Positions 28,740 to 57,236 of a stretch of DNA of 64,000 nucleotides are shown here, in pieces. Both the position numbers and the translations under genes were made by a program. The notes beneath the pieces were generated by a model, which worked only from the letters and a program-made list of their open reading frames with translations, had not been told where the DNA came from and searched no databases. This stretch comes from a virus (lineage: Duplodnaviria; Caudoviricetes). The stretch spans positions 2,312 to 66,311 of the IMG/VR virus record IMGVR_UViG_3300033068_001067; one strand, written 5' to 3'. Within the stretch, counting starts at the first letter, position 1, and each line of letters opens with the position of its first letter.

Positions 28740-29374
28740 GTTGGACTTCATTTTTTGATAGGATATTTGTAGTTAATTTACCCACAAGAAATGATAGGTT
28801 ATTAGCTACAATGAATGAGTTAAATAAGTTTAATATACCCTTTAGTTTAGTAGAAGCAATAAGCCATGATAAAGGTGCAGAAGGATTAAAAATAACCATG
28901 CTAAAACTATTTAATGAATGTATTAATGCAGGGTATAAAAACATATTAGTGTTTGAAGATGATGTAGAATTTGTATCGGATAAAGTAAATGAAACAATGG
29001 ATTTAGCCGTACAACAACTACCCGAAAATTACCATATTCTTTATTTAGGATGCCAACCTACACATGGTTATCCAAGATTTTATTCAGATAATTTACTCCC
29101 CGTAACAGGGGCTTTTGCCACACATGCTTGTGGATATAGTTTGTTAGCAATGAAAAGTTTAGTAGCTTTGGACATGCAAGCCCCAATAGATAACTTTATA
29201 GTTAGGGTGCTGCAACCCGAAAACAAGTGCTATCAAACATACCCGTTCCTTGCATCTCAAAGAGAAGGATTTAGTGATATTGGTAAAGCGGAGATTAGTT
29301 GGAAACCTTTTTTAGAAGTAAGGCACAAACAGAAAATAGCCGAGATGAAACAAAAAGGAAGATTTAACCATTGA
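28736..29374 (+). CDS. glycosyltransferase family 25-like
   Basis: IFVVNLPTRNDRL...ILVFEDDVEF...ATHAC. Confidence 0.75.
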   Translation: MSWTSFFDRIFVVNLPTRNDRLLATMNELNKFNIPFSLVEAISHDKGAEGLKITMLKLFNECINAGYKNILVFEDDVEFVSDKVNETMDLAVQQLPENYHILYLGCQPTHGYPRFYSDNLLPVTGAFATHACGYSLLAMKSLVALDMQAPIDNFIVRVLQPENKCYQTYPFLASQREGFSDIGKAEISWKPFLEVRHKQKIAEMKQKGRFNH

Positions 29375-29375
29375 T

Positions 29376-30074
29376 ATGAACCAAATATCCATCTGCACGC
29401 CTACATTTAACCGTACAAGTTTGCTTATTGATAGTTTTAAGCAAGTGTATGACGATGAGAGAATAGGCGAAATTATTATCGTTGATGATTGTAGCGATTT
29501 AGCTATCTACAACCTAGTGGGTGAAATACTATCCCACTACCCCAAAGTAAAATACTTTAGAAACGAACAGAACAAAGACTGCTATAAAAATAAATGCGAG
29601 ACGGTAAAGAAAGCATCTAATGAATATGTCATTCTTTTTGACAGCGACAACGAACTAACTACCGATTACATAGATGTTATCTATAACCAAACATGGAGTG
29701 ATGATGTAATTTTACAACCAACTTTCGCAAAGCCTTTATTTGATTTTAGAAAATATGCAGGGCTTTATATCCACAAAAATAATGTAGCAGAATACATAGG
29801 CAAACCAATGTTTGACACAGCTTTAAACGCTTGCAATTACTTTATCAATAGAGATAAATACCTACAAACATTTGACGACACAATAGACCCCGTAACTGCT
29901 GATAGTATTTACTTCAACTACTGTTGGTTAAAAAACAACAACATCATACACTTCGTAAAAAACTTAGAATATAGCCACAGGGTTCATGATGGCAGCCACT
30001 ACAAAAACAATGTAGCAAGAACACCAAATGGATTTTATGAAAGCATTATTAACAATCTAAAGCAATTAAAATGA
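29376..30074 (+). CDS. glycosyltransferase family 2 (GT-A)
   Basis: ISICTPTFNR...IIIVDDCS...VILFDSDN DxD motif. Confidence 0.85.
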   Translation: MNQISICTPTFNRTSLLIDSFKQVYDDERIGEIIIVDDCSDLAIYNLVGEILSHYPKVKYFRNEQNKDCYKNKCETVKKASNEYVILFDSDNELTTDYIDVIYNQTWSDDVILQPTFAKPLFDFRKYAGLYIHKNNVAEYIGKPMFDTALNACNYFINRDKYLQTFDDTIDPVTADSIYFNYCWLKNNNIIHFVKNLEYSHRVHDGSHYKNNVARTPNGFYESIINNLKQLK

Positions 30075-30760
30075 AATCAAAGCCTAAAATATCTAAAGAA
30101 TGCAAATGCGGTAATGTGTTTCATGTTCTTCCTTACAGAGAAGGGACAGCTTTTTATTGTAGTGCAAGGTGTAGACAAATTTATAGGGAGTATAAACCTA
30201 ATAGAGGGTCATTTAAGAGTGGGGCTGTCGAATATAAAAGAAGTAGAGCTAACGTACCTATAGTTTGCGGCATATACAAAATAACAAACCCTAATGGGGC
30301 TGTTTATATAGGCGGCTCACGGACTATTTACAGAAGATGGTTAAGGCATAGGGAAGCAAGAAAGAAAATAAAAATACATTTATCAATAAAGCAGTTCGGG
30401 TGGAAGGCACATGAATTTAAAATAATTCATGAACTACCAAAAGATGTAGATAACGATACACTAATAAGATATGAGCAACTTTACATGGACTTATATAGAG
30501 ATTGTGGCAGCAATATGTTAAACGTAAAGGATGCCGGCAGTAAAGCCAAATTCCCACAAGAATCAAAATCTTTAATGAAAGAATCTAATAAAAAGAAGTA
30601 TGCAGTTAAATACAATGGCAATGTGATTGAATTTATAGGGCTAAAACAGTTTTGTATAGATAACAATATTGCAGAAAAAAGCTTTTCAGATTTGATACAT
30701 GCGAATGGTCATTATCGCTCAAAAAATTATTATAAAGGTTATTCAAGATTAAACGATTAA
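30071..30760 (+). CDS. GIY-YIG homing endonuclease with N-terminal Cys zinc-finger
   Basis: CKCG...YCSARC; CGIYKITN...VYIGGS...R...E...N. Confidence 0.85.
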   Translation: MKSKPKISKECKCGNVFHVLPYREGTAFYCSARCRQIYREYKPNRGSFKSGAVEYKRSRANVPIVCGIYKITNPNGAVYIGGSRTIYRRWLRHREARKKIKIHLSIKQFGWKAHEFKIIHELPKDVDNDTLIRYEQLYMDLYRDCGSNMLNVKDAGSKAKFPQESKSLMKESNKKKYAVKYNGNVIEFIGLKQFCIDNNIAEKSFSDLIHANGHYRSKNYYKGYSRLND

Positions 30761-30764
30761 AACT

Positions 30765-31763
30765 ATGAAAAAAGCACTTGTATTAGGCGGGACAGGGACA
30801 ATTGGTCATCAGCTTTGCAGACGACTTAAATCAGAAGGTTTTTGGGTAAGGTGTGTTGATAGAAAACGCAATGAATATTCGGATACGGTATGTGATGAAT
30901 TGGTTATAGGCGATTTAAGGGATGCAGATTTTGTAAGCAAAGTAATGATTTCCCCTAGCCAAAAATCAATAAACGATAAAGTTAATTCCTTTGATGAAGT
31001 GTACGCATTAATGGCTGAAATGGGCGGGGCTAATTATGTATTTACAAAAGATAATGATGCTGAAATAATACACAATTCAGCATTGATGAATTTAAACGTT
31101 TGCAATTATGCGTCATTGATGCAAGTTAAAAAAATATTTTTTTCATCAAGTGCTTGTTGTTATAGTGAAAGTTTGCAAATGACGACAGATAATGCAGGGC
31201 TAAAAGAATCGGGGGCTTGGGTAGGTGGTAAGCCAGACAGCGTGTATGGGATAGAAAAATTATTTTCAGAACAAGTATATGATTCATTTAGAAGGAACAA
31301 AGGTTTAAATATAAGAGTAGCAAGATTCCATAATATTTTTTCAGAAGAAGGCTGTTGGAATAACGGCAGAGAAAAATTCCCTGCCGCTTGTTGTAGAAAA
31401 GTAGCGGAAGCCGCAGATGGGGAAGAAATAGAAATTATGGGGGATGGGTTGCAAACAAGGTCGTTTCTTTATTGTCAAGAAGCATTAGATGGGATAAGAA
31501 AATTAATGGATTCTGATTATCAATATCCAATTAATATAGGTAGTGATGAAATGATAAGTATTAACGACCTTGCTAAAATGGTTATTGAAATAAGTGGTAA
31601 AAAACTTACAATAAAAAATATAGAAAGCAATGCAGTTGGCGTAAGGGGCAGAAACAGTGACAACACTTTGATAAAAGAAGTATTAGGATGGTCGCCAACT
31701 CAACCGCTAAAAGTAGGTATGGAGAAATTGTATAAATGGGTAAAATCACAAACCAATCCTTAA
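30765..31763 (+). CDS. NAD-dependent epimerase, GDP-mannose 3,5-epimerase-like
   Basis: GGTGTIG Rossmann motif; YGIEK (YxxxK); GREKFPAACCRKVA; GDGLQTRSF; GVRGRNSDN. Confidence 0.85.
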   Translation: MKKALVLGGTGTIGHQLCRRLKSEGFWVRCVDRKRNEYSDTVCDELVIGDLRDADFVSKVMISPSQKSINDKVNSFDEVYALMAEMGGANYVFTKDNDAEIIHNSALMNLNVCNYASLMQVKKIFFSSSACCYSESLQMTTDNAGLKESGAWVGGKPDSVYGIEKLFSEQVYDSFRRNKGLNIRVARFHNIFSEEGCWNNGREKFPAACCRKVAEAADGEEIEIMGDGLQTRSFLYCQEALDGIRKLMDSDYQYPINIGSDEMISINDLAKMVIEISGKKLTIKNIESNAVGVRGRNSDNTLIKEVLGWSPTQPLKVGMEKLYKWVKSQTNP

Positions 31764-31765
31764 TT

Positions 31766-32389
31766 ATGGATAAAGCAGTAATAAAGGGCAAGGGAGATGT
31801 CGTTTTAAAATCTGGAGTTACAATAAATGAGTATGTAAAAGTGCATAGGTGGATTTCAAAAATGAAAGGGAAAGCATATAAGTGTGAAAATCAAAATTGT
31901 GATGGTTTGAGTGTTAATTATCATCATTCTTTAAAAAAAGGTAAAAGGTACGAAAAGGATGTAGAGAATTTTTGGATGTTATGTGTTAAGTGCCATAAAA
32001 AATATGATTGGAAAGACGAGTTTGCTAATCATGTAAGAGGCATGAAATTAAGCGATGAGACAAAAGCTAAACTTGCAGCAGCGAATTTAGGCAAAAAGGC
32101 TTCCGATGAAACTAAGCGCAAATTGTCGGAACGGTTTAGTGGTAGTAATAATCCTATGTACGGAGTTAGTATTTCTGGCGAAAAAAGCGCTTGGTGGGGT
32201 AGAAAGCACACTGAAAATTCAAAAATAAAGCAAGCAATTTCTTCAGCAAAAGTTTCAGAAGAAGTAGTTATCGAAATTCGTAGATTGGTAGACAGTGGTG
32301 TTCGACAAAAAGAAGTTGCAAAACAAGTTGGGCTAAGTAGGGCTAGTATTTGCAGAATTGTAAACAAAAAACGATATAAACAATGGTAG
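31766..32389 (+). CDS. HNH endonuclease with NUMOD3 and C-terminal HTH
   Basis: CENQNC...MLCVKCHKKYD; KLSDETKAKL and GRKHTENSK NUMOD3 repeats; VRQKEVAKQVG HTH. Confidence 0.8.
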   Translation: MDKAVIKGKGDVVLKSGVTINEYVKVHRWISKMKGKAYKCENQNCDGLSVNYHHSLKKGKRYEKDVENFWMLCVKCHKKYDWKDEFANHVRGMKLSDETKAKLAAANLGKKASDETKRKLSERFSGSNNPMYGVSISGEKSAWWGRKHTENSKIKQAISSAKVSEEVVIEIRRLVDSGVRQKEVAKQVGLSRASICRIVNKKRYKQW

Positions 32390-36679: not shown

Positions 36680-39067
36680 TTGGATAGCCAAACCAATTAC
36701 CCACCGCATAATATAGACCCTAGAAATAAGGGCTTCGCTTGGATTTTACAATACATCAAAGCAGCATGGACAGATAGTCAAGGTTACTTAGCAGGTAAAT
36801 CTTTGTTCTTTGGGCAAAGCAAATACGATGAAATCCGACAATATGCTATGGGTAAGCAAAGCATAAACAAGTACAAAAAGATTTTATTAGCGGATGAAAC
36901 AGACGACAAATCTTGGTTAAGTATTAGTTGGGATGTACCTTCTTTCCTTACAAAATTTAGAGAAATAGCAATAGCTAAACTTAATCAAAAGCAATTTGAT
37001 TTACAAGCCTATGCAGTTGACCCCTTAGCAAGAAGCGAAGAAGATGCTAAGTTTAACGAAATGAAGGTTAAGGTTTTAATGAGAGAACAAGCATTGGCAA
37101 TGCAAAGCGAGTTGGCAGACACCCCCGTATTAGCACCAACACAAGGCGAACCAGAAGATATGGAACAGTTGCTTATGCAAAAAGAATTTGGCTATAAGCA
37201 TGTAATGGGTATGGAAGCGGAGTTGGGTATTCAATTGGTTTTTGGACAAAATAACATAGAAGAAAAGAGAAAGCGAACTATTGAAAACCAAGTAGATTAT
37301 GGCATTGGCGGGTACACTACATGGATTGACCATAATGGCAACACTAAGTTTAGAGAATTGAACCCTAGAAATCTAGTGCTATCCTACTGCGAAAAGAACG
37401 ACTTTTCGGACTTAGTACATTGGGGTGAAGCAATAGAACTCCCCGTAGTAGATTTAGTGCCATACTTCGATAAAAAGCAGATGGATGATATTTGTGTTAA
37501 TGTAGCAGGTAAGTGGGGCAATCCTAGTACTTATAGAGCAGCACAAGGGGCAACAAACCCCGATTGGAGTAGATTTAAGGTATTAGTATTAGACTTTAAA
37601 TTCCTATCATGGAACGAAACGGTTTACAAAGACGAAGTAGATGGTAGGGGTAATACAAGGTTTGGAAAAACAAACTATGACGACAAGAAATACCTATCAG
37701 TTAATAAAAACGGGTTACTTGCAGAATACACAATGCCTACCGATGTAGAAACTACAAGTGGTGGTAGCCCAACAGCAAAATACATTTCTACCAACGTAAA
37801 GGTAGTTTACAAAGGCAAATGGCTAATTGGTACAGATTTAATGTACGATTGGGGTTTGCAAGAAAACATGTCAAGAAAGTCAAGCACATGGACTGATACC
37901 AACTTAGATATTCAGTTGTATGCTTGGAACTTTAATCAAATGCAATTTACAGGTATTACCGAAAGGCTAATCCCTTTTGAAGATAAAGCATGTTTGGCTT
38001 GGTTTAGGTTACAGAACATGGCAAACCGATTAATCCCTTACTTAATTAATATTGACTTAACGACAATAGAAAGTACAGGTTTTGGTAAAGGTGGTGCAAA
38101 CATGAAACCTGCCGAATTGATTGACTTCGTTTTTAGCACTTTTGTTGTGCCTTACCGTTCTACTGATTTACTAAGTAGCAACCCCAACTACAAACCCGTA
38201 ACAATTGAAGCAACAGGGCAACTAGCAGCCTTTGGGCAACTTTATGAGGAACTAGCCCACACCATTGAGATGATGCGTCAAGTTACAGGTCTAAATGAAG
38301 CTACTGATGCAAGTACGGTAAATGCTAAAACCTTAAATGGTGCAACACAAGCCATGATGGAAAGCACTAACAATGCTTTGTACTTAGTATCAAATGCTGA
38401 CAAACAATTAATGGTAAGATTGGCAGATAGTATAGTTACCAAAATACAAATAGCAGTAGGATTAGGTAAGGTAGAAGGCTACGCAAAAGCACTTGGTAGT
38501 GATACAGTAAATTTCATCAAAATAAACCCCGATATTTCTTTGTATGAGTTAGGTATTTTCATTGAAGATGCACCTACCCAACAACAAAGAGAAATGCTAT
38601 GGCAAGATATTAGCATCAAAGAATCACAAGGGCTATTAAGTATTGAAGATAAGGTAATGATAATGTCGGTTCGCAACTTGAAGCAAGCCGCAATGATGTT
38701 GGCATACAAGATTAAAAAGCGTAAAGAAGAACAGCAACAATTTGAACTACAAAAAATACAAGAGAATAATCAAGGGCAACAGCAAATGCTAATGACTGCG
38801 GAACAAATGAAGCAGCAAACTTTACAGATGCAAGCCCAATTAGATATTCAAAGAATAACCACAGAAAAGCAATGGGAATTTGAGATAGAGAAGATGAAGA
38901 AAATGATGGATTTTGAAGGTGAAACCGTACAAGCAGACGCAAGAACAATAGGGCATCAAATACAAGCAGATGCCAAAGTTTATGCAAGTCAAATAGCGGC
39001 AGAAGGTGGGCTAATAAAACAACAAATACAAAACGAAAAACCACAACCTAAGTCAAAAAGTAAATAA
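36680..39067 (+). CDS. portal protein
   Basis: 795 aa; YAMGKQSINKYK...ISWDVP...QLDAYAVDP-like start, MRQVTGLNEATDAS, Q-rich barrel-like C-terminus; precedes scaffold and capsid genes. Confidence 0.8.
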   Translation: MDSQTNYPPHNIDPRNKGFAWILQYIKAAWTDSQGYLAGKSLFFGQSKYDEIRQYAMGKQSINKYKKILLADETDDKSWLSISWDVPSFLTKFREIAIAKLNQKQFDLQAYAVDPLARSEEDAKFNEMKVKVLMREQALAMQSELADTPVLAPTQGEPEDMEQLLMQKEFGYKHVMGMEAELGIQLVFGQNNIEEKRKRTIENQVDYGIGGYTTWIDHNGNTKFRELNPRNLVLSYCEKNDFSDLVHWGEAIELPVVDLVPYFDKKQMDDICVNVAGKWGNPSTYRAAQGATNPDWSRFKVLVLDFKFLSWNETVYKDEVDGRGNTRFGKTNYDDKKYLSVNKNGLLAEYTMPTDVETTSGGSPTAKYISTNVKVVYKGKWLIGTDLMYDWGLQENMSRKSSTWTDTNLDIQLYAWNFNQMQFTGITERLIPFEDKACLAWFRLQNMANRLIPYLINIDLTTIESTGFGKGGANMKPAELIDFVFSTFVVPYRSTDLLSSNPNYKPVTIEATGQLAAFGQLYEELAHTIEMMRQVTGLNEATDASTVNAKTLNGATQAMMESTNNALYLVSNADKQLMVRLADSIVTKIQIAVGLGKVEGYAKALGSDTVNFIKINPDISLYELGIFIEDAPTQQQREMLWQDISIKESQGLLSIEDKVMIMSVRNLKQAAMMLAYKIKKRKEEQQQFELQKIQENNQGQQQMLMTAEQMKQQTLQMQAQLDIQRITTEKQWEFEIEKMKKMMDFEGETVQADARTIGHQIQADAKVYASQIAAEGGLIKQQIQNEKPQPKSKSK

Positions 39068-39102
39068 TTTAAGGTGTTTTTAATTTTTTAATCAGTTTTT
39101 AA

Positions 39103-39110
39103 TACATTTG
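39103..39110 (+). promoter_or_regulatory. Bacteroidota-type -7 box (TACATTTG)
   Basis: TAnnTTTG match upstream of the scaffold gene. Confidence 0.5.
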
Positions 39111-39129
39111 TTTAACCAAAAATAATTTT

Positions 39130-40296
39130 ATGTCAGAAACTATCCAAGTAAGGCAAACCACTTATTCTAATTTAGCGGCACAAAATGAAACCGAAACGCC
39201 AATAGAAACAACAGCCGTTGCACAAGAACAAGCAGCAACTACTGATGATAAATTAGGAGTGGTAGAAGTACCCGAAGTGATAGCAGAAACACAGACACAA
39301 GAACAAGCAGCCGAAACAACCACTACCGAAACAGAAACACAAGAAGATAACGAAGCAAGTGTAAGTTTCAACTATGAAGATTTCGGCACACAAGAACAAG
39401 CACAACCCGAACAGCAAGCACAGCCACAACAAGTTTCTTTAAAAGAACTTATTAAAAAAGCAAGTGCGGATGAAGTAAAAGAGTTATTAAAAGAAGTAGG
39501 TATTGAAGATTTTGCTTTAGAATTAAATGAGCATATCAAAAAAGGTGGTAAGCCGATTGATTACTTAAATGCAAAAGCAATAGATTGGGATGTAGTACCC
39601 GATACTGATATGGTTAAGGATAACTTGAAAAAAGAGTTCCCCAACTTAACAGAACAAGAAATAACAAAGCTGTACAACAAAAAATATAACCAATCAGACC
39701 TTGCGGATGAAGACGAAAAAGAAGATGGGTTATTGATGTTGAAAGCAGATGCTTACAAATTAAGACAACAAAAGAAGGCTGAACAAGCCCAATTTAAAAT
39801 AGCTGATGGTAAGGTGTTACAACAAGAGGTTACAGCATCCGACCCATTATCACAACAACAAGCCGAGCAACAAAGAAAACAATACGAAGCAGTCGTTGAT
39901 TTCTTTAAAAACCATGAAGCCACAAAAGCCGTAACAGAAAGCAAGAGAGTTGCTATTGATTTAGGCGAAAATGGCACATTTAATTTCAAGTTGGAGAAGC
40001 CCGAAATATTGCTAAATGCAGTACTCGATGCTAACACTTGGGCAAGAATCACAGCCGCAAATCCGGGAGAGCCTGATGCGTCTAAACTACAACCCGATGT
40101 AAAAAAACTGCAAAGATTAGTTCTTGCAGCCATCAACCCCAACTATGAAAAGGACTTGGTAAATTATGGTAAATCATTAGGTAAGAAAAGTTTTATAAAG
40201 GAACAGCAAAATGCACAAAGACCTTTAGGACAATCTGCCAATCAATCAACAGATAAGCCTTCGTTTGCAATTGGAGTTGGCGGTAGGTACAACTAA
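39130..40296 (+). CDS. capsid scaffolding protein (putative)
   Basis: Acidic E/Q/T-rich N-terminus; located between portal and MCP. Confidence 0.7.
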   Translation: MSETIQVRQTTYSNLAAQNETETPIETTAVAQEQAATTDDKLGVVEVPEVIAETQTQEQAAETTTTETETQEDNEASVSFNYEDFGTQEQAQPEQQAQPQQVSLKELIKKASADEVKELLKEVGIEDFALELNEHIKKGGKPIDYLNAKAIDWDVVPDTDMVKDNLKKEFPNLTEQEITKLYNKKYNQSDLADEDEKEDGLLMLKADAYKLRQQKKAEQAQFKIADGKVLQQEVTASDPLSQQQAEQQRKQYEAVVDFFKNHEATKAVTESKRVAIDLGENGTFNFKLEKPEILLNAVLDANTWARITAANPGEPDASKLQPDVKKLQRLVLAAINPNYEKDLVNYGKSLGKKSFIKEQQNAQRPLGQSANQSTDKPSFAIGVGGRYN

Positions 40297-49262: not shown

Positions 49263-49794
49263 GCGATACCAATTCCAACTTGCTTCTATACTCAATCAAT
49301 AATTCTCGCAAATCCGATACAGATAGCTTATTTATGGAGTGTGCCATTTCATCAACATACTCTAATGCTTCGGGGTGTTCTTTTTTTAGTCTATCCCTAA
49401 ATATTTCGGGGTGGGTCTCATGTTTTGAATTACATTTTGGGCATTGCACCCTCACTCCACCTTCATAATATCTGCTACCCATATCAGCCCTACTCCCTAC
49501 ATGCCCACATTGAGATTGCTTCCAATTCATAACTTCATCACAGGTATAACAACTAACTTCCCCCCTATTATTAGCATACTTAATTCTGATGTATTTTGAA
49601 AAAACTGCATCCAATTCATCCCTTAAATTAGCCCAACTTTCATCTGAAAAATCTCGTTCCATTCTCTTATCCGAAACCCTTTTAATAGGCTTATACCCTT
49701 TACTTGCACACATCTTGCATCTTCCCTTAGAGAAAGCGAAATCGTAATGCCCACAAGCTAACTGACGCTTCTTAGGTTTTATTGTTGAGTTCAT
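49246..49794 (-). CDS. ninG: NinG/Rap-like recombination endonuclease
   Basis: LDAVFSKYIR...CYTC...QCGH...QCPKCN. Confidence 0.8.
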   Translation of the reverse strand: MNSTIKPKKRQLACGHYDFAFSKGRCKMCASKGYKPIKRVSDKRMERDFSDESWANLRDELDAVFSKYIRIKYANNRGEVSCYTCDEVMNWKQSQCGHVGSRADMGSRYYEGGVRVQCPKCNSKHETHPEIFRDRLKKEHPEALEYVDEMAHSINKLSVSDLRELLIEYRSKLELVSLKLSQ

Positions 49795-50621
49795 AAACGG
49801 ATTTGATTAAGTGGTGACGGAGTTCTGCTGATTAAATTATGTGAAATGTGGGTATAAATTCGGGTCGTATTTAAGTTTTGATGACCGCATAGCTTTTGAA
49901 TTATTGAAATATCAGTTCCTTGTTCTAAAAGATGTGTCATAGTACAATGCCTAATTAAATGGGTATATACTCTTTTATTGATTTTTGCTTTCTCCGCTAG
50001 TTGCTTAATAACTTGACCTACACTTCTTTCTGAATATTGTAATTCATCCTTCCACCCATTTAGTACATACACTTTACTTTTATACTCCTTCCAATAATCT
50101 TCAAGCAATCCGATAACGGAACTACTTAGCATGACTTGCCTATCTCTTTTCCCCTTAGCTTGAATTACATTAATAATCATCCTACTTCTATCAATGTGTT
50201 CCCACTTCAAATTAATCAATTCTGAAACTCGCAAGCCGCAAGAATAAAGCAACCCTAAAATTACTCGATGTTTTTTATTGTCGCAAACATCAAACATTCT
50301 TTGTATCTCCCCAACTGATAAAACTATGGGTAATTTGTTCTCTTTTCGAGCATATTGAATGTATTTAAACTTTTGCTTTTGATTCATGCAAATGTCATAG
50401 AACTTTTTAATTGCACTATGGTAATTCCTTTGAGTATTAACCGTTGAAAATTTACACAAGAAATCTTTAATATCTTGTTCATTGATATTCTTTGGGTGGT
50501 CTTTATCCACTTTTGAGAAAAATACATCAATACATGAAGCATAATTATCAATAGTATTTTGACAGTAATTTCTACGTTTCATTTCTTGAATGAATCTACC
50601 CTTATGTTTACATATATTCAT
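49791..50621 (-). CDS. tyrosine recombinase (SAM-like N-domain + catalytic domain) adjacent to the cassette array
   Basis: LPIVLS; GLRVSE (R); AKGKRDR (K); HLIRH (HxxR); CGH (H); IYTH (Y); C-terminal SPL; no IntI-type ALERKY insertion. Confidence 0.93.
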   Translation of the reverse strand: MNICKHKGRFIQEMKRRNYCQNTIDNYASCIDVFFSKVDKDHPKNINEQDIKDFLCKFSTVNTQRNYHSAIKKFYDICMNQKQKFKYIQYARKENKLPIVLSVGEIQRMFDVCDNKKHRVILGLLYSCGLRVSELINLKWEHIDRSRMIINVIQAKGKRDRQVMLSSSVIGLLEDYWKEYKSKVYVLNGWKDELQYSERSVGQVIKQLAEKAKINKRVYTHLIRHCTMTHLLEQGTDISIIQKLCGHQNLNTTRIYTHISHNLISRTPSPLNQIRL

Positions 50622-51243
50622 AGTTTATAAATTTTAGTTTTTTTGGTTGGTTCATAACTTCTTTATAAAAGCACTTCAACGCAACTATGTGGGCATTCCT
50701 CGTATTTTTGTTTTTTATTAGTCCTATGTAATGCCTAATTTCATTTTGATTAATTTCTTTTGGCGACTTTTTTTTACCTTCAAATTCAGAAATAAACCTT
50801 TTAATGTATGAAATAAAATTTCTTTTGCTATTCTTTGAGTAAGAACTTTTCTCAAGGCAAAAACGAAATTTTGCTATGTAAATAGAGTTTTTCTTTACTC
50901 TGTAATAATTATTACCCCCACCTCCTAAATTCCCATTTAGTAAATTACTTATGCCTAATTTACTTATCCATTCCTTTTCTTTAAAACTTGCTTGTTCGGT
51001 TGGTACAGTTTCTAATACTTCAATTATGGGGAGTAACCCAACTATTGCTAATTCACGTATCCATAAATTTTTCTTTGAGTTAGTGCTATTTCTTTTTGAT
51101 ATATGTAAATAAAGCCTTTGCTTTATTGGCAAATACGTCTTGCCTATATACCTTATTGATTTAGTCAACGGGCATGAAAGCGAATAAATATAGGTTGTAG
51201 TTATATTCTGAATTAAATTAACTAACCGTTCAGAAGTAGGCAT
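50608..51243 (-). CDS. GIY-YIG nuclease fused to an integrase N-terminal (SAM-like) domain
   Basis: YIYSL...IRYIGKT...R...E...N; C-terminal half aligns by eye with residues ~5-90 of the neighbouring recombinase. Confidence 0.8.
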   Translation of the reverse strand: MPTSERLVNLIQNITTTYIYSLSCPLTKSIRYIGKTYLPIKQRLYLHISKRNSTNSKKNLWIRELAIVGLLPIIEVLETVPTEQASFKEKEWISKLGISNLLNGNLGGGGNNYYRVKKNSIYIAKFRFCLEKSSYSKNSKRNFISYIKRFISEFEGKKKSPKEINQNEIRHYIGLIKNKNTRNAHIVALKCFYKEVMNQPKKLKFINYEYM

Positions 51244-51272
51244 AGTAAATTATTGGTTTTGAATTAATTAAA

Positions 51273-51301
51273 TAACGTGCGGGACATATTTTATGTTAAA
51301 T
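51273..51301 (+). other. candidate attI-like primary site (first GTT at 51295)
   Basis: Recombinase-proximal GTT with no attC hairpin before it; ACATA/TATGT mini-palindrome. Confidence 0.35.
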
Positions 51302-51340
51302 CGAAAGCCCTCCACAAAAGCCATCCCTTCGCTTTCGATT

Positions 51341-51434
51341 TAACGAGTAGGATTTTTTCCGTTTACGAAAGCCCTTCGGGCCTTCGTTTAACAATGGATT
51401 TTATCCATTGAAACGGAAAAAATCCTACTCGTTA
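51341..51434. repeat. attC-like site 0: perfect 24-bp inverted repeat with two internal hairpins
   Basis: TAACGAGTAGGATTTTTTCCGTTT / AAACGGAAAAAATCCTACTCGTTA. Confidence 0.8.
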
Positions 51435-51443
51435 CCTGCAAGG

Positions 51444-51686
51444 CTAACTGCATCGGTTAGCGACAGCCTTCCAACAATTACAATCACTACACATTTCATT
51501 TCTATTTTCAGTTTGACAAAATTTCAAATCCACAGTTAAGTAAATTAATTCCTTTGTCAATTCGTGGTATTTTTCGTAGGCTCTTTTGATTTCCATATTC
51601 TTAAAATCAACTAATGGAAAATCTGTTTTTAGTTTCTCAATTTTACTTTCTATCGTTTTAAGCCTTCTTTTTTTCTTTTGTAACAT
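51444..51686 (-). CDS. cassette 1 cargo: hypothetical protein
   Basis: Single ORF between GTT 51431 and AAC 51729. Confidence 0.65.
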   Translation of the reverse strand: MLQKKKRRLKTIESKIEKLKTDFPLVDFKNMEIKRAYEKYHELTKELIYLTVDLKFCQTENRNEMCSDCNCWKAVANRCS

Positions 51687-51724
51687 CGTTTTTAAATTAA
51701 GTTCCTACTGATAAACCGCCCAGC

Positions 51725-51817
51725 AGGTAACAGCGGTTTGGCAAAAGCCGCCATAAACATTCTGCAAACTTTAAACTTTTCGTTAGGCAGCCTTCGCCAA
51801 GCCGCAAAACGTTAGGT
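51725..51817 (+). repeat. attC-like site 1
   Basis: AAC-A-GCGGTTTGGC...GCCAAGCCGC-AAAAC-GTT. Confidence 0.88.
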
Positions 51818-51835
51818 GCAATGCCAGCGGACACC

Positions 51836-52549
51836 CTAAAACATTCGGAGTTGGCTGACAAAATCTTTAAAACGCTTTTCTTGTGCTTCATAATAATCTT
51901 TATCTATTTCAAATCCAGTAAAATCAAACCCACCTTTATTACAGGCAATTCTACTGCTACCACTTCCAACGTGAGTATCTAAAATCAAATCACCTTCTTT
52001 GGCATAATTTGATAATAACCAATCATACAATGCCACAGGCTTTTGAGTTGGGTGTATTCTTTGCTCTTTGTCTTTCATATTGTGTTGCAACATTCCGTGC
52101 CAAGTAATATTTACAAAGTCTATTTTTTGCAACCAACTCAACCAAGCAAGTTCGCCAGTGCTATAAGTTGGCATTGTTACGTTTTTATGCCAATAAAGCA
52201 TACCGCCAACTAATCCAAAGAAATTTGCACCCCACACTATTTGTTTTTTAGATACTCTTTTTAACTCATTAAAATAATCTTCGTTTGGCGTTTCGTTATC
52301 CCAATTTGTTTTTTTATAGGTATTAATTTTAGCCAAAGAAGTTTTTTCGTGCCTATCACTATTTTTGCCATTGTTTTTAATATCGGCATTTATGCCATAA
52401 GGCGGGTCAACTATTGCAAGGTCAAAGTAATTATCAGAAAAGCGTTTTAAACCCTCTACACAATCCTCATTATACACCACAGAAGGCACTGCACCTAACA
52501 CGGTATTGGCAAAATTGCCGTTCTGTTTTTCAATTAAACTTTCGTCCAT
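51836..52549 (-). CDS. cassette 2 cargo: orphan N4-C/N6-A DNA methyltransferase (beta class)
   Basis: DLAIVDPPYG motif IV; HPTQKP; LDTHVGSGSS motif I; start lies inside attC2. Confidence 0.92.
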   Translation of the reverse strand: MDESLIEKQNGNFANTVLGAVPSVVYNEDCVEGLKRFSDNYFDLAIVDPPYGINADIKNNGKNSDRHEKTSLAKINTYKKTNWDNETPNEDYFNELKRVSKKQIVWGANFFGLVGGMLYWHKNVTMPTYSTGELAWLSWLQKIDFVNITWHGMLQHNMKDKEQRIHPTQKPVALYDWLLSNYAKEGDLILDTHVGSGSSRIACNKGGFDFTGFEIDKDYYEAQEKRFKDFVSQLRMF

Positions 52550-52616
52550 AATTTCAACTTTTGTTTTTCAATTTAGCTTTCGGTTCGGCAATTTCGCCAA
52601 TACCCATACGTTGTGT
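52493..52616 (+). repeat. attC-like site 2
   Basis: AAC-AC-GGTATTGGCAAAATTGCCG...CGGCAATTTCGCCAATACC-CATAC-GTT. Confidence 0.88.
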
Positions 52617-52625
52617 GCAAGGCTT

Positions 52626-52859
52626 CTACTCGACAATCCCTAAACTGTCAATGTACTTCTTGGCATAATCGCAACACATTTTGACAGAGCCTTGTTTATC
52701 ATCTTTAAAATCATAGGCAACTTCATCTATTGCTTTATGAATTTCAGCGTGTAACTCACACATTGCTTTTAAGTTTTCAAGAATGTTATAATCTTTTGAA
52801 GCGTCACCTTTTGGACGAATATCGCCAATCAACTTTTTAACTACATCATAATTTGTCAT
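52626..52859 (-). CDS. cassette 3 cargo: hypothetical protein
   Basis: ORF within cassette; start set at MTNY. Confidence 0.65.
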   Translation of the reverse strand: MTNYDVVKKLIGDIRPKGDASKDYNILENLKAMCELHAEIHKAIDEVAYDFKDDKQGSVKMCCDYAKKYIDSLGIVE

Positions 52860-52882
52860 CTTTCTAATTTTGCCCGCCCTGC

Positions 52883-53014
52883 ACACAACAAAAGGTTTTG
52901 CGTTATGTGGGCGTAATGTTATAGGCTCATCATTTTATCTCAAATCAACACAGTATGTATGTGGGCAGACGAGCCTTGAATACCCACACAAACGCAAAGC
53001 CTTGAACGTTAGCG
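52883..53014 (+). repeat. attC-like site 3
   Basis: AAC-AA-AAGGTTTTGCGTT...AACGCAAAGCCTT-GAAC-GTT. Confidence 0.85.
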
Positions 53015-53248
53015 GTCAGTACTACCAGTATTCAAGTTCAACAGTCTTTGACCAAGTTTTTTATGGTTCTCCCATTCTTCATCTGACAAATTACTTAAAC
53101 AGTCAGGCTTTTCACCTTGTATGGTTTTTAGTATTGACAATTCAGTTTCATTGTTAAGCTCTTTTAACATTGAATGTGACTTATCTAAAACCATATCATT
53201 TAAGGTATTTAGATTGTCAAATGCGGAGTGATACTTTTTGTCTTGCAT
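53009..53248 (-). CDS. cassette 4 cargo: hypothetical protein
   Basis: ORF whose TAA stop overlaps the GTT box. Confidence 0.65.
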   Translation of the reverse strand: MQDKKYHSAFDNLNTLNDMVLDKSHSMLKELNNETELSILKTIQGEKPDCLSNLSDEEWENHKKLGQRLLNLNTGSTDR

Positions 53249-53297
53249 AATTGTATATTTTAATTTTAATGTTTCTATTTTTTTACTCGTGCCGAAC

Positions 53298-53409
53298 CGC
53301 TAACAAACGGTTTGGCAAAATACGGGGTGAAGTGCAGAGTCGAACGATTATAAAGCCAAGCATAAGTAACAGTCATTGCCCGTACTTCGCCAAGCCGCAA
53401 ACGTTGGCT
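53298..53409 (+). repeat. attC-like site 4
   Basis: AAC-AAA-CGGTTTGGCAAAATACGGG...CCCGTACTTCGCCAAGCCG-CAAAC-GTT. Confidence 0.88.
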
Positions 53410-53415
53410 GCAATA

Positions 53416-53637
53416 CTACAACTTTTCAATTTCGGCTTTGACTTCTATCCAAAAAGTTAAGCGTTGTTCCTCAAAAGGACTTGACGCATCGCAATCGTTT
53501 ATCAATTCATGAACTGTCATTAAAGCACATTGTTTTGACATTTCAAATCCTTCGCCTCTTAATCTTACATTTTCAAACGATATTATTTTATCGTTTATTT
53601 TTTTAAGTAATTCTACAGCTTTTGCTTGCGGTGACAT
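53416..53637 (-). CDS. cassette 5 cargo: hypothetical protein (MSPQAKAVEL...FWIEVKAEIEKL type)
   Basis: ORF within cassette; start set at MSPQ. Confidence 0.7.
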   Translation of the reverse strand: MSPQAKAVELLKKINDKIISFENVRLRGEGFEMSKQCALMTVHELINDCDASSPFEEQRLTFWIEVKAEIEKL

Positions 53638-53677
53638 ATTTTTTATTTTGACAGTTACTAATCTTTTACCGTACAGC

Positions 53678-53774
53678 AGCCAACAAAAGTATTGCTGCAA
53701 GTAGGGCTTGACCAGCATTGCTCAACAGTAGTTTTCCAAATTCCCTACCTGACAGCAATACTCGGTCGTTAGCT
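53678..53774 (+). repeat. attC-like site 5
   Basis: AAC-AAA-AGTATTGCTG...CAGCAATACT-CGGTC-GTT. Confidence 0.88.
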
Positions 53775-53960
53775 GCTACTATTACCAGCCTTTACAGTTT
53801 CGGAATTAACAAGTATAAGTGTTAAGTCTAACGATTCAATATATCTTGTTTTTACCTTGCCCCTTCTTATCCAGTTGCTTAAAACTTGCCTTGATATATT
53901 TTTCTGCTTAGTGTATTGCCACATGGTAGCCCATTTGTCAGTATCAATTTTAACTACCAT
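53769..53960 (-). CDS. cassette 6 cargo A: small HTH (excisionase-like) protein
   Basis: QYTKQKNISRQVLSNWIRRGKV HTH pattern; stop overlaps the GTT box. Confidence 0.6.
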   Translation of the reverse strand: MVVKIDTDKWATMWQYTKQKNISRQVLSNWIRRGKVKTRYIESLDLTLILVNSETVKAGNSSS

Positions 53961-54078
53961 TTTTTATGTTTTAGATTAAATATTTCATCTTGTGATTCAC
54001 GAATATTGCCCATAAGTTGAATTATCAGCCATAATAAAAAACAATTTACAATTAATGAAATAATAAGTATTGTAATCA

Positions 54079-54309
54079 TTATAAGTATTTTACAAGTTTT
54101 AATTCTCCGTTTATTTCTTTTACCCACTCATAACCATCAACATTTTCGTCTTTCCATGTTTTAGCGTTTACCATGAAGTATAAACCTTCTTCATTCTGAT
54201 TTTTCACAAGATTTATCACTTTACCACGCTGACCATGTAGTTTGTAAGCAACTGCACTATTTACTTCGTTTACTTTTTCTACTTTGTAATTGTTGATTTG
54301 CTGTGTCAT
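54079..54309 (-). CDS. cassette 6 cargo B: hypothetical protein
   Basis: ORF directly downstream of a promoter. Confidence 0.65.
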   Translation of the reverse strand: MTQQINNYKVEKVNEVNSAVAYKLHGQRGKVINLVKNQNEEGLYFMVNAKTWKDENVDGYEWVKEINGELKLVKYL

Positions 54310-54325
54310 AATTTGAATGTTTATG

Positions 54326-54356
54326 CAAATATAATATTGTTTACATTGCAAACAAA
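54326..54356 (-). promoter_or_regulatory. Bacteroidota-type promoter inside cassette 6 (TTTG-N19-TATATTTG)
   Basis: Minus-strand -33 box at 54353-54356 and -7 box at 54326-54333. Confidence 0.6.
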
Positions 54357-54389
54357 ATATTTTTAAACTTTTTTATTGCACATAGCAGC

Positions 54390-54485
54390 AGCTAACATCG
54401 TATTGGCAAAACAAGGGCTTGACAAATAAATCCAAGCACCAGTTTTTCAAATTCCCTTGCTTCGCCAATACGTCCAACGTTAGGT
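54390..54485 (+). repeat. attC-like site 6
   Basis: AAC-AT-CGTATTGGCAAAACAAGGG...CCCTTGCTTCGCCAATACG-TCCAAC-GTT. Confidence 0.88.
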
Positions 54486-54491
54486 GCAATG

Positions 54492-54740
54492 CTAAAGACC
54501 GTTAATCAATTTCATTATCGTTTGACGACCTTCTTCTTTAGCTTTTTTAATATCCTCAATAGTTTTGTCTTGAATATCAAAAACGTTTTTGTTTGCTACA
54601 TAACCATCACCTGCTTGTGGTAAATGGTCGTGGCATATCCATTTGAACTCTCTACACGTTTTTTCACGTTCATCGTAGTATTCGTCTAACTTAGTCAAAG
54701 CTAAATTCAGAATGTCTTTTTCTTTATTCGTAAGTTTCAT
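54492..54740 (-). CDS. cassette 7 cargo: hypothetical protein
   Basis: ORF within cassette; start set at MKLT. Confidence 0.65.
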   Translation of the reverse strand: MKLTNKEKDILNLALTKLDEYYDEREKTCREFKWICHDHLPQAGDGYVANKNVFDIQDKTIEDIKKAKEEGRQTIMKLINGL

Positions 54741-54767
54741 ATTTTTAAAATTAGGGAGAAGCACTGC

Positions 54768-54899
54768 ACCTAACAAGGTATTGCCAAAAGCAGGACATTC
54801 TCGGTTAATTAATCATTTGTACTTCTATGGGGCATTTGTGCAAGGTTTAGACTTTTTGCTTCTAAATCCCTGCCTTCGGCAATACCCGAACCGTTATGC
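54768..54899 (+). repeat. attC-like site 7
   Basis: AAC-AA-GGTATTGCCAAAAGCAGG...CCTGCCTTCGGCAATACC-CGAACC-GTT. Confidence 0.88.
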
Positions 54900-54911
54900 C
54901 TCATTGCTACC

Positions 54912-55232
54912 TTACTGCTCCGAAACAGGTTTTTTGCCAAGCATATTCATCACTATACTTGATTTGTTTGGATAGTTCTTAGCAAGGTGAAAAAAGAATT
55001 GGTCAATATTTACACCTTCTTCTATTCTACATTTTGAAAGCACATCATATAAATTAGTAGTTACATTTCTCCCATCAACATCGGGGTAAATACAAGTAGT
55101 GCAAAAATCAAAATCTGCATACTGAAATTCTGCAAACATTGGTATTTGTTCGGCTTTACATATCTCTATGATTTTTGCCATTAGTGGAGCAATTTGCTCA
55201 TCGTAAATCTGTTCTTTATTTTTCATTTTCAA
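54912..55232 (-). CDS. cassette 8 cargo: conserved phage hypothetical protein
   Basis: NKEQIYDEQIAPLMAKIIEICK...IPM start; fills the cassette. Confidence 0.7.
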   Translation of the reverse strand: MKMKNKEQIYDEQIAPLMAKIIEICKAEQIPMFAEFQYADFDFCTTCIYPDVDGRNVTTNLYDVLSKCRIEEGVNIDQFFFHLAKNYPNKSSIVMNMLGKKPVSEQ

Positions 55233-55264
55233 ATTAATTTAATCGTTAATAAACCGCAACGAAG

Positions 55265-55350
55265 GCATAACAGCGTATAAAGTAAACCGCCAATACCTAC
55301 CCACGAAGCCAACGCAATTGTCGGCTTCCCTTATACGCAAACCGTTAGGC
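55265..55350 (+). repeat. attC-like site 8
   Basis: AAC-A-GCGTATAA...TTATACGC-AAACC-GTT. Confidence 0.82.
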
Positions 55351-55356
55351 GATATG

Positions 55357-56046
55357 CTAAAACAACCGCACTTGCGAAACGAAATCATCGTATCTTTTGC
55401 ACGATTTATTAAAATATTCTTCGTCAATTTCACAACCAACAAAATTTAGTTTATACTTATTAGCAGAAATCCTTGAACTTCCAGAACCTAAATGTGTATC
55501 TAAAACCTTTGAGCCTTCTTCTAATTTTGAATAATCAAAACAAAAATCATATAATTCAATAGGTTTTTGGGTTGGGTGAAACCTTTTTAAATCAGTGCTT
55601 TGTTTTCGTATTATCTTACTTGGTTTGTCAAATGACGTCCATACTAATTCACAAGCAGAAAAAGTAGGCATAGATTGTACTTTGTCCCAGCAAATGAAAC
55701 CTCTTGTATTTGGTAAATATTCTAAAAAGTAATTAGCCCCAAAAATAATTTGGTCTTTTGAAACTCTAAATAATTCTAACCAATACTCTTCTTGCGGTAA
55801 AATATCCCACTTTGAACTATCTCTATAAAGTGTTGCAAAAGGACTGTTTTTATGTTTGCCACCTCTTTCAGTTAGTTTTTCGCCCAATCCATAAGGCGGG
55901 TCGCAAATTGCTAAATCAAAGTATTTATCGGGGTAATGTTTCATAAGTTGAATATTATCCATTAAATAAACCTCCGAAGAAGCACAATCGCCTAACACGT
56001 GTTTGGAGCAATGCGGGGATTTGTCTTTAATTTTATTATCAGTCAT
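55357..56046 (-). CDS. cassette 9 cargo: second orphan N4-C/N6-A DNA methyltransferase (beta class)
   Basis: DLAICDPPYG; HPTQKP; LDTHLGSGSS; start lies inside attC9. Confidence 0.92.
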   Translation of the reverse strand: MTDNKIKDKSPHCSKHVLGDCASSEVYLMDNIQLMKHYPDKYFDLAICDPPYGLGEKLTERGGKHKNSPFATLYRDSSKWDILPQEEYWLELFRVSKDQIIFGANYFLEYLPNTRGFICWDKVQSMPTFSACELVWTSFDKPSKIIRKQSTDLKRFHPTQKPIELYDFCFDYSKLEEGSKVLDTHLGSGSSRISANKYKLNFVGCEIDEEYFNKSCKRYDDFVSQVRLF

Positions 56047-56123
56047 TGTTTTTAAGTTTAGTTTTTAATTGAAAAATTGGTGCATTTTTAGCCCGCACTG
56101 CACCAAGCACGAGAACGTTGGCT
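55990..56123 (+). repeat. attC-like site 9
   Basis: AAC-A-CGTGTTTGGAGCAATGCGGG...CCCGCACTGCACCAAGCACG-AGAAC-GTT. Confidence 0.88.
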
Positions 56124-56124
56124 G

Positions 56125-56379
56125 CTATACTACAACCCCATTCATTTTAAGTTCCGCCCTTAAACGTATTAATTCACGATTGACTTTAAGCAGTTCTTGC
56201 TCATATTCATTACGCTGAATTTTGACACGTTTACACTCTTTTTTTATTTCTTCATTAACGCCATTGGAAAATTCAACCATTACTTCCATTACTTTTTTTT
56301 CGCCAAATTCACCATAAGCGGAAAATCCTTCTTCGTTGTAAAAAACACCCCATCTTTTTAAGAAATTTAATGCACTCAT
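56125..56379 (-). CDS. cassette 10 cargo: hypothetical coiled-coil protein
   Basis: ORF fills the cassette. Confidence 0.65.
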   Translation of the reverse strand: MSALNFLKRWGVFYNEEGFSAYGEFGEKKVMEVMVEFSNGVNEEIKKECKRVKIQRNEYEQELLKVNRELIRLRAELKMNGVVV

Positions 56380-56421
56380 ATTTTATATTTTGATATTTTA
56401 AAATTTATCTTACCGTACAGC

Positions 56422-56508
56422 AGCCAACAATGTGTTTTACGCAAGGGCGGACACAGTACGCAGGTTGAAATTGCTTTATTGCCCCTGCGTAAAGCACCAC
56501 CGTTAGCC
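56422..56508 (+). repeat. attC-like site 10
   Basis: AAC-AAT-GTGTTTTACGCAAGGGC...GCCCCTGCGTAAAGCAC-CACC-GTT. Confidence 0.88.
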
Positions 56509-56514
56509 GTAATG

Positions 56515-57138
56515 CTATGATACACCACGAGCAAAATCTATTGCCATTTGTTTTGCATCTTCAATAGTTTTAGCAACCCATTTTCCTTTACCCCATTTCG
56601 TAGGATATTCAGAAAATACACCACTTATTTGACCTCTCATTTTTTCGTTTGGAGTTTTATCATCATAAGTATAACGTACCCAAACCCCTAATTTACCATC
56701 TTGTTCACCTTCTTCGGCAACAGGATTTAATTTATGTGTTTCATCCATATCTGTATCACCCAAAAATCGCAAACAATCTTCTAAAAATTCTTCTTTGTTG
56801 GATGGCTCATAATGGCAATGCCCTTTCTTACATTCACTTCCTATACCAAAGCCAAATATTGCTCTATGAGACCAACCGTACCACTTTTGTTCTATCGGGT
56901 TAAACCCTATACAACTTGTTGTTGGTTCGCCATATCCATCTTGTATTTGTTCAGTAATACCTCTTTTAAATAAAAACTCTAAGTTTTTTTCTGAACCTAC
57001 TCTACCTAAATAAGAACCATCTACTTTTGAGTAGTATATTTTACCTGCATCATCAGGTATAGTTGAATCACCAATTATTGCAATTGAGTTTATAAACTGT
57101 TGCAATTTTTTAGACACTTGTTTTTTTGTTTTAAACAT
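56515..57138 (-). CDS. cassette 11 cargo: conserved phage hypothetical protein (207 aa)
   Basis: GFNPIEQKWYGWSHRAIFGFGIG...AKTIEDAKQMAIDFARGVS. Confidence 0.75.
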   Translation of the reverse strand: MFKTKKQVSKKLQQFINSIAIIGDSTIPDDAGKIYYSKVDGSYLGRVGSEKNLEFLFKRGITEQIQDGYGEPTTSCIGFNPIEQKWYGWSHRAIFGFGIGSECKKGHCHYEPSNKEEFLEDCLRFLGDTDMDETHKLNPVAEEGEQDGKLGVWVRYTYDDKTPNEKMRGQISGVFSEYPTKWGKGKWVAKTIEDAKQMAIDFARGVS

Positions 57139-57181
57139 ATACTTTGATTTTTAAATGATTTTGAATTTTATAAAGCACTAC

Positions 57182-57236
57182 GGCTAACAGCGGTTTGGCG
57201 ACATTAAAACGACCGCCAAGCCGCAAAACGTTGAGC
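57182..57236 (+). repeat. attC-like site 11 (terminal, shortest)
   Basis: Arms identical to site 1: TAACAGCGGTTTGGC / CGCCAAGCCGCAAAACGTT. Confidence 0.9.

Follow-up and report, generated by a model that had tools for sequence, protein, structure and literature searches.

A putative integron-like platform with a short IntI-like recombinase and asymmetric attC-like hairpins in a Caudoviricetes genome

A Recombinase and Hairpin Array in a Phage Genome

In the integron literature the I2 region of the integron integrase (IntI) is held to underlie recombination of single-stranded DNA (ssDNA); Xer proteins are without it, and this additional domain defines IntI. Here we describe a tyrosine recombinase gene without I2 that adjoins an array of attC-like hairpins in a 64-kb window (the whole stretch of DNA analyzed, 64,000 nucleotides (nt), out of the 66.3-kb IMG/VR virus record IMGVR_UViG_3300033068_001067; Caudoviricetes, record completeness estimated at 92%, GC content about 35%). 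We consider it likely that positions 49791-57232 constitute a phage-borne integron-like platform run by this recombinase, which probably acts on the adjoining hairpins. Read on the + strand, the locus consists of the leftward recombinase gene, an accessory open reading frame (ORF), an attI-like site with a conserved left half ending in G|TT and then 12 cassettes, each of the form TTRRRY - cargo - RYYYAAC - hairpin - G. Table 1 gives the recombinase, the junction and the sites. Hairpin sites were scanned with R2, a covariance model that succeeded R1, and the retrieved comparison loci, phage or bacterial, carry L-numbers (L004, L101, and so on).

Table 1. Recombinase, attI-like junction and hairpin sites (spacers in brackets; sites 1 to 11 were each found by the pattern scan and by R2)
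49791..50621, - strand: tyrosine recombinase, 276 amino acids (aa), IntI/XerA-like, without the I2 insertion (ORF, Pfam and NCBIfam)
51270..51297, no strand assigned: attI-like junction, motif ACATATTTTAT at 51284-51294, then GTT at 51295-51297
51296..51433, + strand: first cassette, without an ORF, closed by the symmetric (2/2) hairpin of site 0 (51342-51433)
51729-51813, + strand: site 1 (1/5), closing the cassette with ORF 51444-51686 (-)
52497-52612, + strand: site 2 (2/5), one unit with methyltransferase 1, 51811-52612
52887-53010, + strand: site 3 (2/4), cargo ORF 52626-52886 (-)
53302-53405, + strand: site 4 (3/5), cargo ORF 53009-53248 (-)
53682-53770, + strand: site 5 (3/5), cargo ORF 53416-53718 (-)
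54394-54481, + strand: site 6 (2/6), cassette with three small ORFs, 53769-54351 (-)
54772-54895, + strand: site 7 (2/6), cargo ORF 54492-54776 (-)
55269-55346, + strand: site 8 (1/5), cargo ORF 54912-55232 (-)
55994-56119, + strand: site 9 (1/5), with the start of methyltransferase 2 in its loop
56426-56504, + strand: site 10 (3/4), cargo ORF 56125-56379 (-)
57186-57232, + strand: site 11 (1/5), 47 nt, distal end of the array

The Recombinase Is Short and Lacks the I2 Region

It had been predicted from the sequence alone that the recombinase has no IntI insertion and runs from DRQVMLS...YWKEYK straight to VYVLNG...YSERSV. The ORF, which contains DRQVMLSSSVIGLLEDYWKEYKSKVYVLNGWKDELQYSERSV, does read as quoted, and the absence of the insertion is borne out by an alignment, a profile match and a structure model. 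The protein carries Pfam Phage_integrase and a SAM-like N-terminal domain, and the catalytic residues R131, K156, H221, R224, H247, and Y256 are all present and invariant across 45 aligned relatives. Its top PDB sequence match, VchIntIA (PDB 2a3v), aligns in two blocks, residues 14-171 on 13-175 and residues 199-273 on 245-319; IntI residues 176-244 are skipped, 27 recombinase residues stand in place of 69, and about 40 aa, the IntI-specific I2 region, are missing. Family membership was judged with the IntI model TIGR02249 as a stand-in for the IntegronFinder profile intI_Cterm. The match is split (profile positions 7-179 and 239-314 of 315, with 180-238 unmatched) and reaches 166.1 bits against a cutoff of 265, that is, the protein does not score as a canonical IntI. 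NF011946 gave 86.4 bits (cutoff 435) and the XerD model 170 bits (cutoff 330), while the best-scoring family model, the XerA model NF040815 (XerA_Arch), reached 200.3 bits and is also below its cutoff of 220. The recombinase lies under every curated NCBIfam cutoff.

In the AlphaFold model built from 45 relatives (predicted local distance difference test score, pLDDT, 88.7; an earlier run with 12 close sequences was poor at pLDDT 62), residues 181-197 make up a loop, with short beta bridges, that connects helices 167-180 and 198-211, and no extra helix of the I2 type is present in it. XerA (5hxy) and VchIntIA were the top structural matches of this model. The short form is the norm of the family, because more than 120 protein clusters (at least 70% identity) are uniformly 263-304 aa long, almost all of them 274-278 aa. 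The missing insertion and the score under the cutoff support the conclusion that the recombinase is not a canonical IntI.

The Sites Are Hairpins with Asymmetric Spacers

The pattern used in the site scan was AAC, a nt, a 9-bp arm, its partner arm, b nt and GTT, with the spacers written a/b. This independent scan returned exactly the 11 spacer pairs of the original prediction, 1-3 nt after AAC and 4-6 nt before GTT. The prediction had also stated that the arms pair without an obvious single extrahelical base, and the stems next to the spacers are indeed contiguous over 8-13 bp with no single-base bulge. What it had overlooked are the symmetric twelfth site (51342-51433) and the attI-like junction (51284-51297). 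R2 matches to the 11 sites are confined to 51.7-57.2 kb of the window. Paired cells amount to 97.6% in the sites vs. 30-41% when the partners are slid, and double (compensatory) changes occur in 14 of the 15 variable pairs. The 3' spacer exceeds the 5' spacer in 122 of 123 distinct sites from phages and bacteria, and many sites have a second internal loop (AAAA/TTC). The R2 bit scores are 45-95 for the sites here, at most 16 for canonical Vibrio attCs and at most 9 for class 1 attCs. The - strand fold is the more stable one in 87 of 113 sites, these sites being non-independent. Two MAFFT alignments, A1 and A2, had given stems in shifted registers, and the covariance model was rebuilt from an in-register subset. 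A permissive scan for AAC...GTT hairpins was dropped, its 141 hits on the + strand and 122 on the - strand being background (72-135 in shuffled sequences); zero-mismatch hits and the covariance model were all that was retained after it.

The sites are linked to one another by their R boxes. Over about 10 nt, each R' box (for example GTTAGGTGC) is the reverse complement of the R'' box in the site that follows (GCACCTAAC), and this chain complementarity runs through the whole array and also in L004-L010. At its proximal end the R' box of site 0, GTTACCTGC, is complementary to R'' of site 1; at its distal end the R' box of site 11, GTTGAGCAATA, has no complementary partner beyond it. The loop of site 5 (53718-53726) holds TTGCTCAAC, the exact complement of this orphan R' box (GTTGAGCAA), a match with a chance expectation of about 0.5 in the window. 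Site 0 is not matched by R2; the first cassette (51295-51433) has a perfect 14-bp inverted repeat followed by a long symmetric hairpin, unlike sites 1 to 11. Site 2 (52493-52606) was also found near-identical (1 mismatch) and at high depth in fish, viral, and wastewater metagenome contigs of different studies.

The attI-Like Junction and the Cassette Boundaries

To the right of the attI-like junction lies cassette-specific sequence, the complement of the R'' box of the neighboring site. In the recombinase sense the junction motif reads as a variable part ending in YTAAC followed by ATAAAATATGT, and it precedes the recombinase, or the accessory ORF where there is one, by about 50 nt. It is kept in the window and in L005, L008-L011, and L019, and each time the variable flank matches the adjacent site. 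A variable half complementary to the neighboring R'' box is, by all appearances, the signature of an attI-type junction.

The array is made up of 12 cassettes, two with methyltransferases, one with a Tad6-family gene and the others with small ORFs or no ORF (Table 2). We followed the reuse of the first methyltransferase cassette in other loci. Homologues of methyltransferase 1 are present in 80 IMG/VR loci. In a blastn search with 51300-53100, homology sets in at the GTT of site 1 (51806-51811) for at least 12 loci and stops at the GTT of site 2 (52612) for at least 14. In more than 13 loci the start of the methyltransferase lies within a site of 132 nt, and the site downstream of the methyltransferase varies from locus to locus. 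From these blastn ends at the GTTs of sites 1 and 2 we concluded that the mobile unit is TTRRRY, the ORF (antisense on the + strand), the whole hairpin and G, with boundaries at G|TT like those of integrons but with the attC lying 5' of its ORF. A boundary at the AAC end, with the canonical order of ORF and then attC, was rejected: the homology blocks end at GTTs and the junction is of the GTT type.

Table 2. Cargo genes with an assigned function
51836..52549, - strand: N6/N4 DNA methyltransferase 1, start codon within the loop of site 2
55357..56046, - strand: N6/N4 DNA methyltransferase 2, start within the loop of site 9
56515..57138, - strand: Tad6-family Thoeris inhibitor (Pfam PF25188, E-value 9e-42)

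When R2 was run on the loci with methyltransferase and Tad6 homologues (L012-L098), it found 125 sites, all of them in methyltransferase loci and 124 of them antisense to the methyltransferase gene, at up to 11 per 8 kb. The comparison with metagenome reads rests on fragmentary contigs. Contigs diverge directly past the GTTs at 51814, 56119, and 56505. Joints recorded in the contigs have short sides of 35 nt at most (most are under 30 nt) with 90% likeness and may stem from other arrays, and for these reasons they are not counted as excision events. Small shares in fish, river, and wastewater runs represent shared sites or cassettes, not this phage.

Recombinase and Array Occur Together in Phages and Bacteria

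In all ten phage loci with a recombinase of at least 56% identity (the window, L004-L006, L008-L011, L019, and L101) an array lies upstream of the recombinase on the opposite strand. The genes on the other flank of the recombinase vary (DnaB, tail fibers, NinG/lysis) while the link to the array stays. A scan of species-representative genomes gave one close relative (56% identity, on the phage-like contig L101) and many at 31-41%. R2-type sites at E<1e-3 were present in 15 of these loci, L101, with its sites upstream and on the opposite strand as in phages, and 14 bacterial loci, in chromosomes of Bacteroidota and Firmicutes, including Sediminibacterium, Flavisolibacter, Algoriphagus, Cnuella, Ohtaekwangia, Desulfitobacterium, and Fusibacter. 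At the same threshold, 35 Xer-like loci yielded no such sites. The bacterial arrays comprise 3-11 sites directly downstream of the recombinase, on the same strand in all but one locus, and in 7 of 9 loci a complement of the R'' box of the first site was found 110-560 nt past the recombinase stop, behind a CATA-ATTT-like motif, as a counterpart of the attI-like junction of the phages.

The bacterial array-linked recombinases are equally short, lack the IntI insertion and score below the IntI cutoff, and canonical IntI was not found in their genomes. A search for canonical IntI in 201 genomes yielded nothing useful, the sample being a small-genome phylum. All 42 measured bacterial sites have b>a spacer asymmetry. 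Because these array-linked, insertion-less relatives show the same spacers, the pairing of a missing I2 with asymmetric spacers and no extrahelical bases holds across a clade, beyond the window. Examples of bacterial array loci are L107 (Desulfitobacterium sp. Sab5), L123 (Fusibacter sp. 3D3), L125 (Sediminibacterium), and L120 (Algoriphagus), with further ones in L128, L110, L131, L137, L127, and L132; Fusibacter has several recombinase copies. Bacterial cassettes have the ORF before its site, the canonical polarity, and their cargo includes Mrr, MerT-HMA, a kinase, an acyltransferase, and AAA_15/21 ATPases.

The Recombinase Belongs to a Clade with Canonical IntI

A maximum-likelihood tree of 58 sequences was built, in which canonical IntI was represented by IntI1, IntI2, and two Vibrio proteins. 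Canonical IntI groups with the phage family, the array-linked short recombinases, and XerA-like archaeal proteins in one clade, split from E. coli XerC/D and Bacteroidota Xer-like proteins with support 100/100. Within it canonical IntI (100/99) is nested and has an insertion-less pair as its sister (98/89). The phage family, which is monophyletic (100/100), falls outside the clade of canonical IntI and is weakly joined (63/90) to the bacterial array-linked group. The system had been proposed to be independent or early-branching. Since the recombinase sits in a 100/100 clade with canonical IntI, apart from XerC/D, the system is not independent of integrons; a relative that branches outside the canonical IntI subclade is a description that fits, with the inner order of the clade poorly resolved.

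Proposed Mechanism and Comparison with Known Systems

Most probably, the recombinase releases cassettes through recombination between two sites (site x site) and integrates them into the attI-like site, the substrate presumably being folded ssDNA. On the model of IntI, cleavage would fall on the - strand, at 5'-RYYYAA|C, which is separated from the stem by 4-6 nt. The mapped boundaries place AA|C at the crossover on the - strand, and the AAC arm of that strand has the long spacer. The cleaved arm would then keep a central region of 5-7 nt, which is normal for tyrosine recombinases, and the opposite arm would have 1-3 nt. It may be a fixed asymmetric internal loop, not extrahelical bases docked on I2, that marks strand and orientation and serves as the recognition feature. 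With this device the phage could swap anti-defense genes with other phages, possibly also with host arrays.

Canonical integrons (class 1, Vibrio) resemble the locus in having a tyrosine recombinase that adjoins an attI-type junction and a cassette array, and in their imperfect RYYYAAC...GTTRRRY hairpins with crossover at G|TT and complementary R boxes of one cassette. They differ in I2 and in extrahelical bases, both of which are lacking here. Published descriptions give attC sites a 5-6 nt spacer per arm and 2-3 extrahelical bases opposite the bottom-strand AAC that is cleaved. Our control attCs agree with this: the spacers of aadA2 are 5/6, its extra bases lie on the AAC arm of the top strand, and the Vibrio site follows the same pattern. 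In contrast to canonical spacers of about 5/5-6 nt, the sites here have 1-3 nt and 4-6 nt with the longer side on the opposite arm, and the arm asymmetry of the phage sites has the opposite polarity to the canonical extrahelical bases. Canonical cargo precedes its attC and points away from attI, an arrangement shared by the bacterial relatives; the phage cargo is inverted.

XerA, XerC, and XerD are similar to the recombinase in length, in their two-domain fold and in lacking I2. Apart from scoring below the XerA cutoff, the recombinase differs from them by adjoining cassette arrays and not a dif context, and a 100/100 branch separates it from E. coli XerC/D and the Bacteroidota Xer-like proteins. 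Clusters of attC sites lacking integron integrases (CALINs) have been described in virulent phages, such as Polaribacter phage P12002L (Qi et al. 2023, PMC9892861). As here, attC-type clusters stand amid phage genes and carry N6_N4 methyltransferase cargo; those clusters were described without any integrase, whereas the window has a cognate-looking recombinase and an attI-like junction in cis. Recombinases lacking intI_Cterm near attC sites were noted by Cury et al. 2016 (PMC4889954) and dismissed as not IntI; four of them were placed between IntI and Xer and co-localized with fewer than 3 attC sites. The recombinase described here is of the same category, with 3-12-site arrays, attI-like junctions and a coherent clade. 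A literature search, itself incomplete, turned up no earlier account of recombinases that lack I2 and accompany attC arrays, nor of complete platforms of this kind encoded by phages.

Alternative Explanations

Several points weigh against a platform run by its own recombinase. The attI-like motif could also be the recombinase promoter. At one position of the stem, 44 of 123 sites (36%) have T.G as read on the + strand, which is C.A on the - strand; this favors pairing on the + strand and conflicts with the proposed choice of the - strand. The tree is deep, with canonical IntI from Gammaproteobacteria only and weak inner nodes (63/90, 59/53). Furthermore, 13 array-bearing phage records, found via the methyltransferase, have no recombinase homologue in a search run with positive controls, 5 of these records being at least 98% complete. 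In phage P12002L there are weak sites of this type with 2/5 spacers and no recombinase, and according to published work one of its sites was recombined by IntI1.

The last two of these points favor the alternative that survives best, which we nevertheless regard as unlikely: the array would be a CALIN moved by another enzyme, for instance a host recombinase or a canonical IntI in trans, and the phage recombinase would serve a different purpose, for instance lysogenic integration or dimer resolution, and adjoin the array by coincidence. Arrays without a recombinase, in records such as L036, L060, L086, L090, L098, L079, and L058, hold up to 11 sites per 8 kb, and no recombinase homologue was found anywhere in such records, some estimated to be 98-100% complete. 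In P12002L (L181) the hairpins lie at 29248-32288 and 37305-39252, on the strand opposite to the methyltransferase genes, which is the polarity of the window. Arrays in many phages thus behave like CALINs; they persist alone and therefore may be serviced in trans. A coincidental adjacency is, however, hard to reconcile with its recurrence, in the same orientation, in 10 of 10 recombinase-bearing phage loci whose other flank differs, or with a recurrent attI-like junction whose variable half matches the adjacent cassette. The short bacterial relatives are also array-linked in the same way, in genomes without canonical IntI.

In the promoter-early stem-loop (PeSL) cassettes of T4-type phages, stem-loops flank shuffled early and accessory genes, as here. 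If the hairpins were RNA or DNA regulatory elements (terminators, mRNA stabilizers, or PeSL-like elements), shuffling would take place by homologous recombination between repeats. The sites do sit between early genes, some loops hold start codons, and unitigs of the source sample break at the sites, as repeats do. Nevertheless, we regard this explanation as very improbable. No T-run was found after the site stems, terminator-like and promoter-like motifs are at background level, and a search of the sites against Rfam matched no family. AAC and GTT are invariant, the R boxes are chain-complementary, homology breaks exactly at G|TT, and an IntI-clade tyrosine recombinase and a junction site accompany the arrays. 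PeSLs are not known to come with a recombinase of their own, an AAC/GTT core or chain-complementary ends. Finally, the locus might be an ordinary integron in which mis-annotation or a frameshift makes IntI seem short. This would suit VchIntIA as the best PDB sequence match, and can be practically dismissed as refuted by the internal alignment gap, the uniform cluster lengths, the unmatched stretch of the profile and the AlphaFold loop, together with the place of the recombinase outside the canonical IntI clade and the failure of canonical attCs in the site model.

Implications of a Recombinase and Site Pair without I2

We prefer to read the locus as an integron variant that has no I2, is carried by a phage and belongs to a wider, unrecognized class. 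The I2-less enzymes, a coherent clade, are accompanied by full platforms with an attI-like junction, 3-12 sites and cassettes shared between genomes, and site geometry changes along with the missing helix. CALINs are commoner and more widely distributed than complete integrons, their origin is unexplained in the literature, and no complete integrons are reported in Firmicutes. As a tentative proposal that may well prove too broad, I2 would not be required for integron-type capture, and short IntI-like recombinases with asymmetric-spacer attCs would form a widespread, overlooked class in Bacteroidota, Firmicutes, and their phages. Many CALINs would be explained by such a class, as would the lack of integrons reported for Firmicutes; canonical IntI would be a derived branch of it, and phages would shuffle anti-defense genes against host arrays. 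If the enzymes are active on the sites, the origin of integrons becomes testable with living "pre-I2" or "I2-free" systems, integron detection needs a second integrase and attC model, phages own a cassette-capture device for counter-defense genes (methyltransferases, Tad6), and a compact structure-specific recombinase/site pair is available as a tool.

Neighboring Genes, Accessory ORF, and Cargo

The + strand of the window carries structural and lysis genes up to about 49 kb, and from there to the window end small early-type genes lie on the - strand. The phage cargo points toward the recombinase, in the same direction as the early genes and inverted relative to bacterial cassettes. The accessory ORF lies between the recombinase and the junction.

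50608..51243, - strand: accessory ORF, 211 aa, with a 14-nt overlap with the recombinase start

Its C-terminal 90 aa are a duplicate of the SAM-like N-domain of the recombinase (Pfam SAM_4, E-value 4e-8). The N-terminal half has a GIY-YIG-like motif, seen by eye only, and gave zero matches in Pfam and PHROGs searches. A homologue of the accessory ORF is absent from L009-L011 and occupies the same position in L008 (9373-10026).

A PHROGs search assigned no function to the accessory ORF or to any small cargo ORF, and blastn with eight small-ORF cassettes found no homologues in the other loci. The cargo of related phage arrays includes Dam, DNA_methylase, DSPc, and YopX, and in one such array a gene with a weak Acb2/Tad1 match lies nearby. 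Both methyltransferase ORFs of the window (regions 52489-52549 and 55986-56046) have an in-frame GTG|TTA exactly at the R box, and the sites of these two cassettes are the only ones in which AAC is followed by AC. Tad6 homologues in other phages (L012-L016, up to 81% DNA identity) share the ORF and not the flanking site, and the Tad6 homologue loci have no R2 sites. Site 11 itself has a counterpart of 98% identity in an unrelated array (L074, 2571-2618). These findings suggest that the Tad6 cassette (56508-57232) was assembled recently from a gene and a site.

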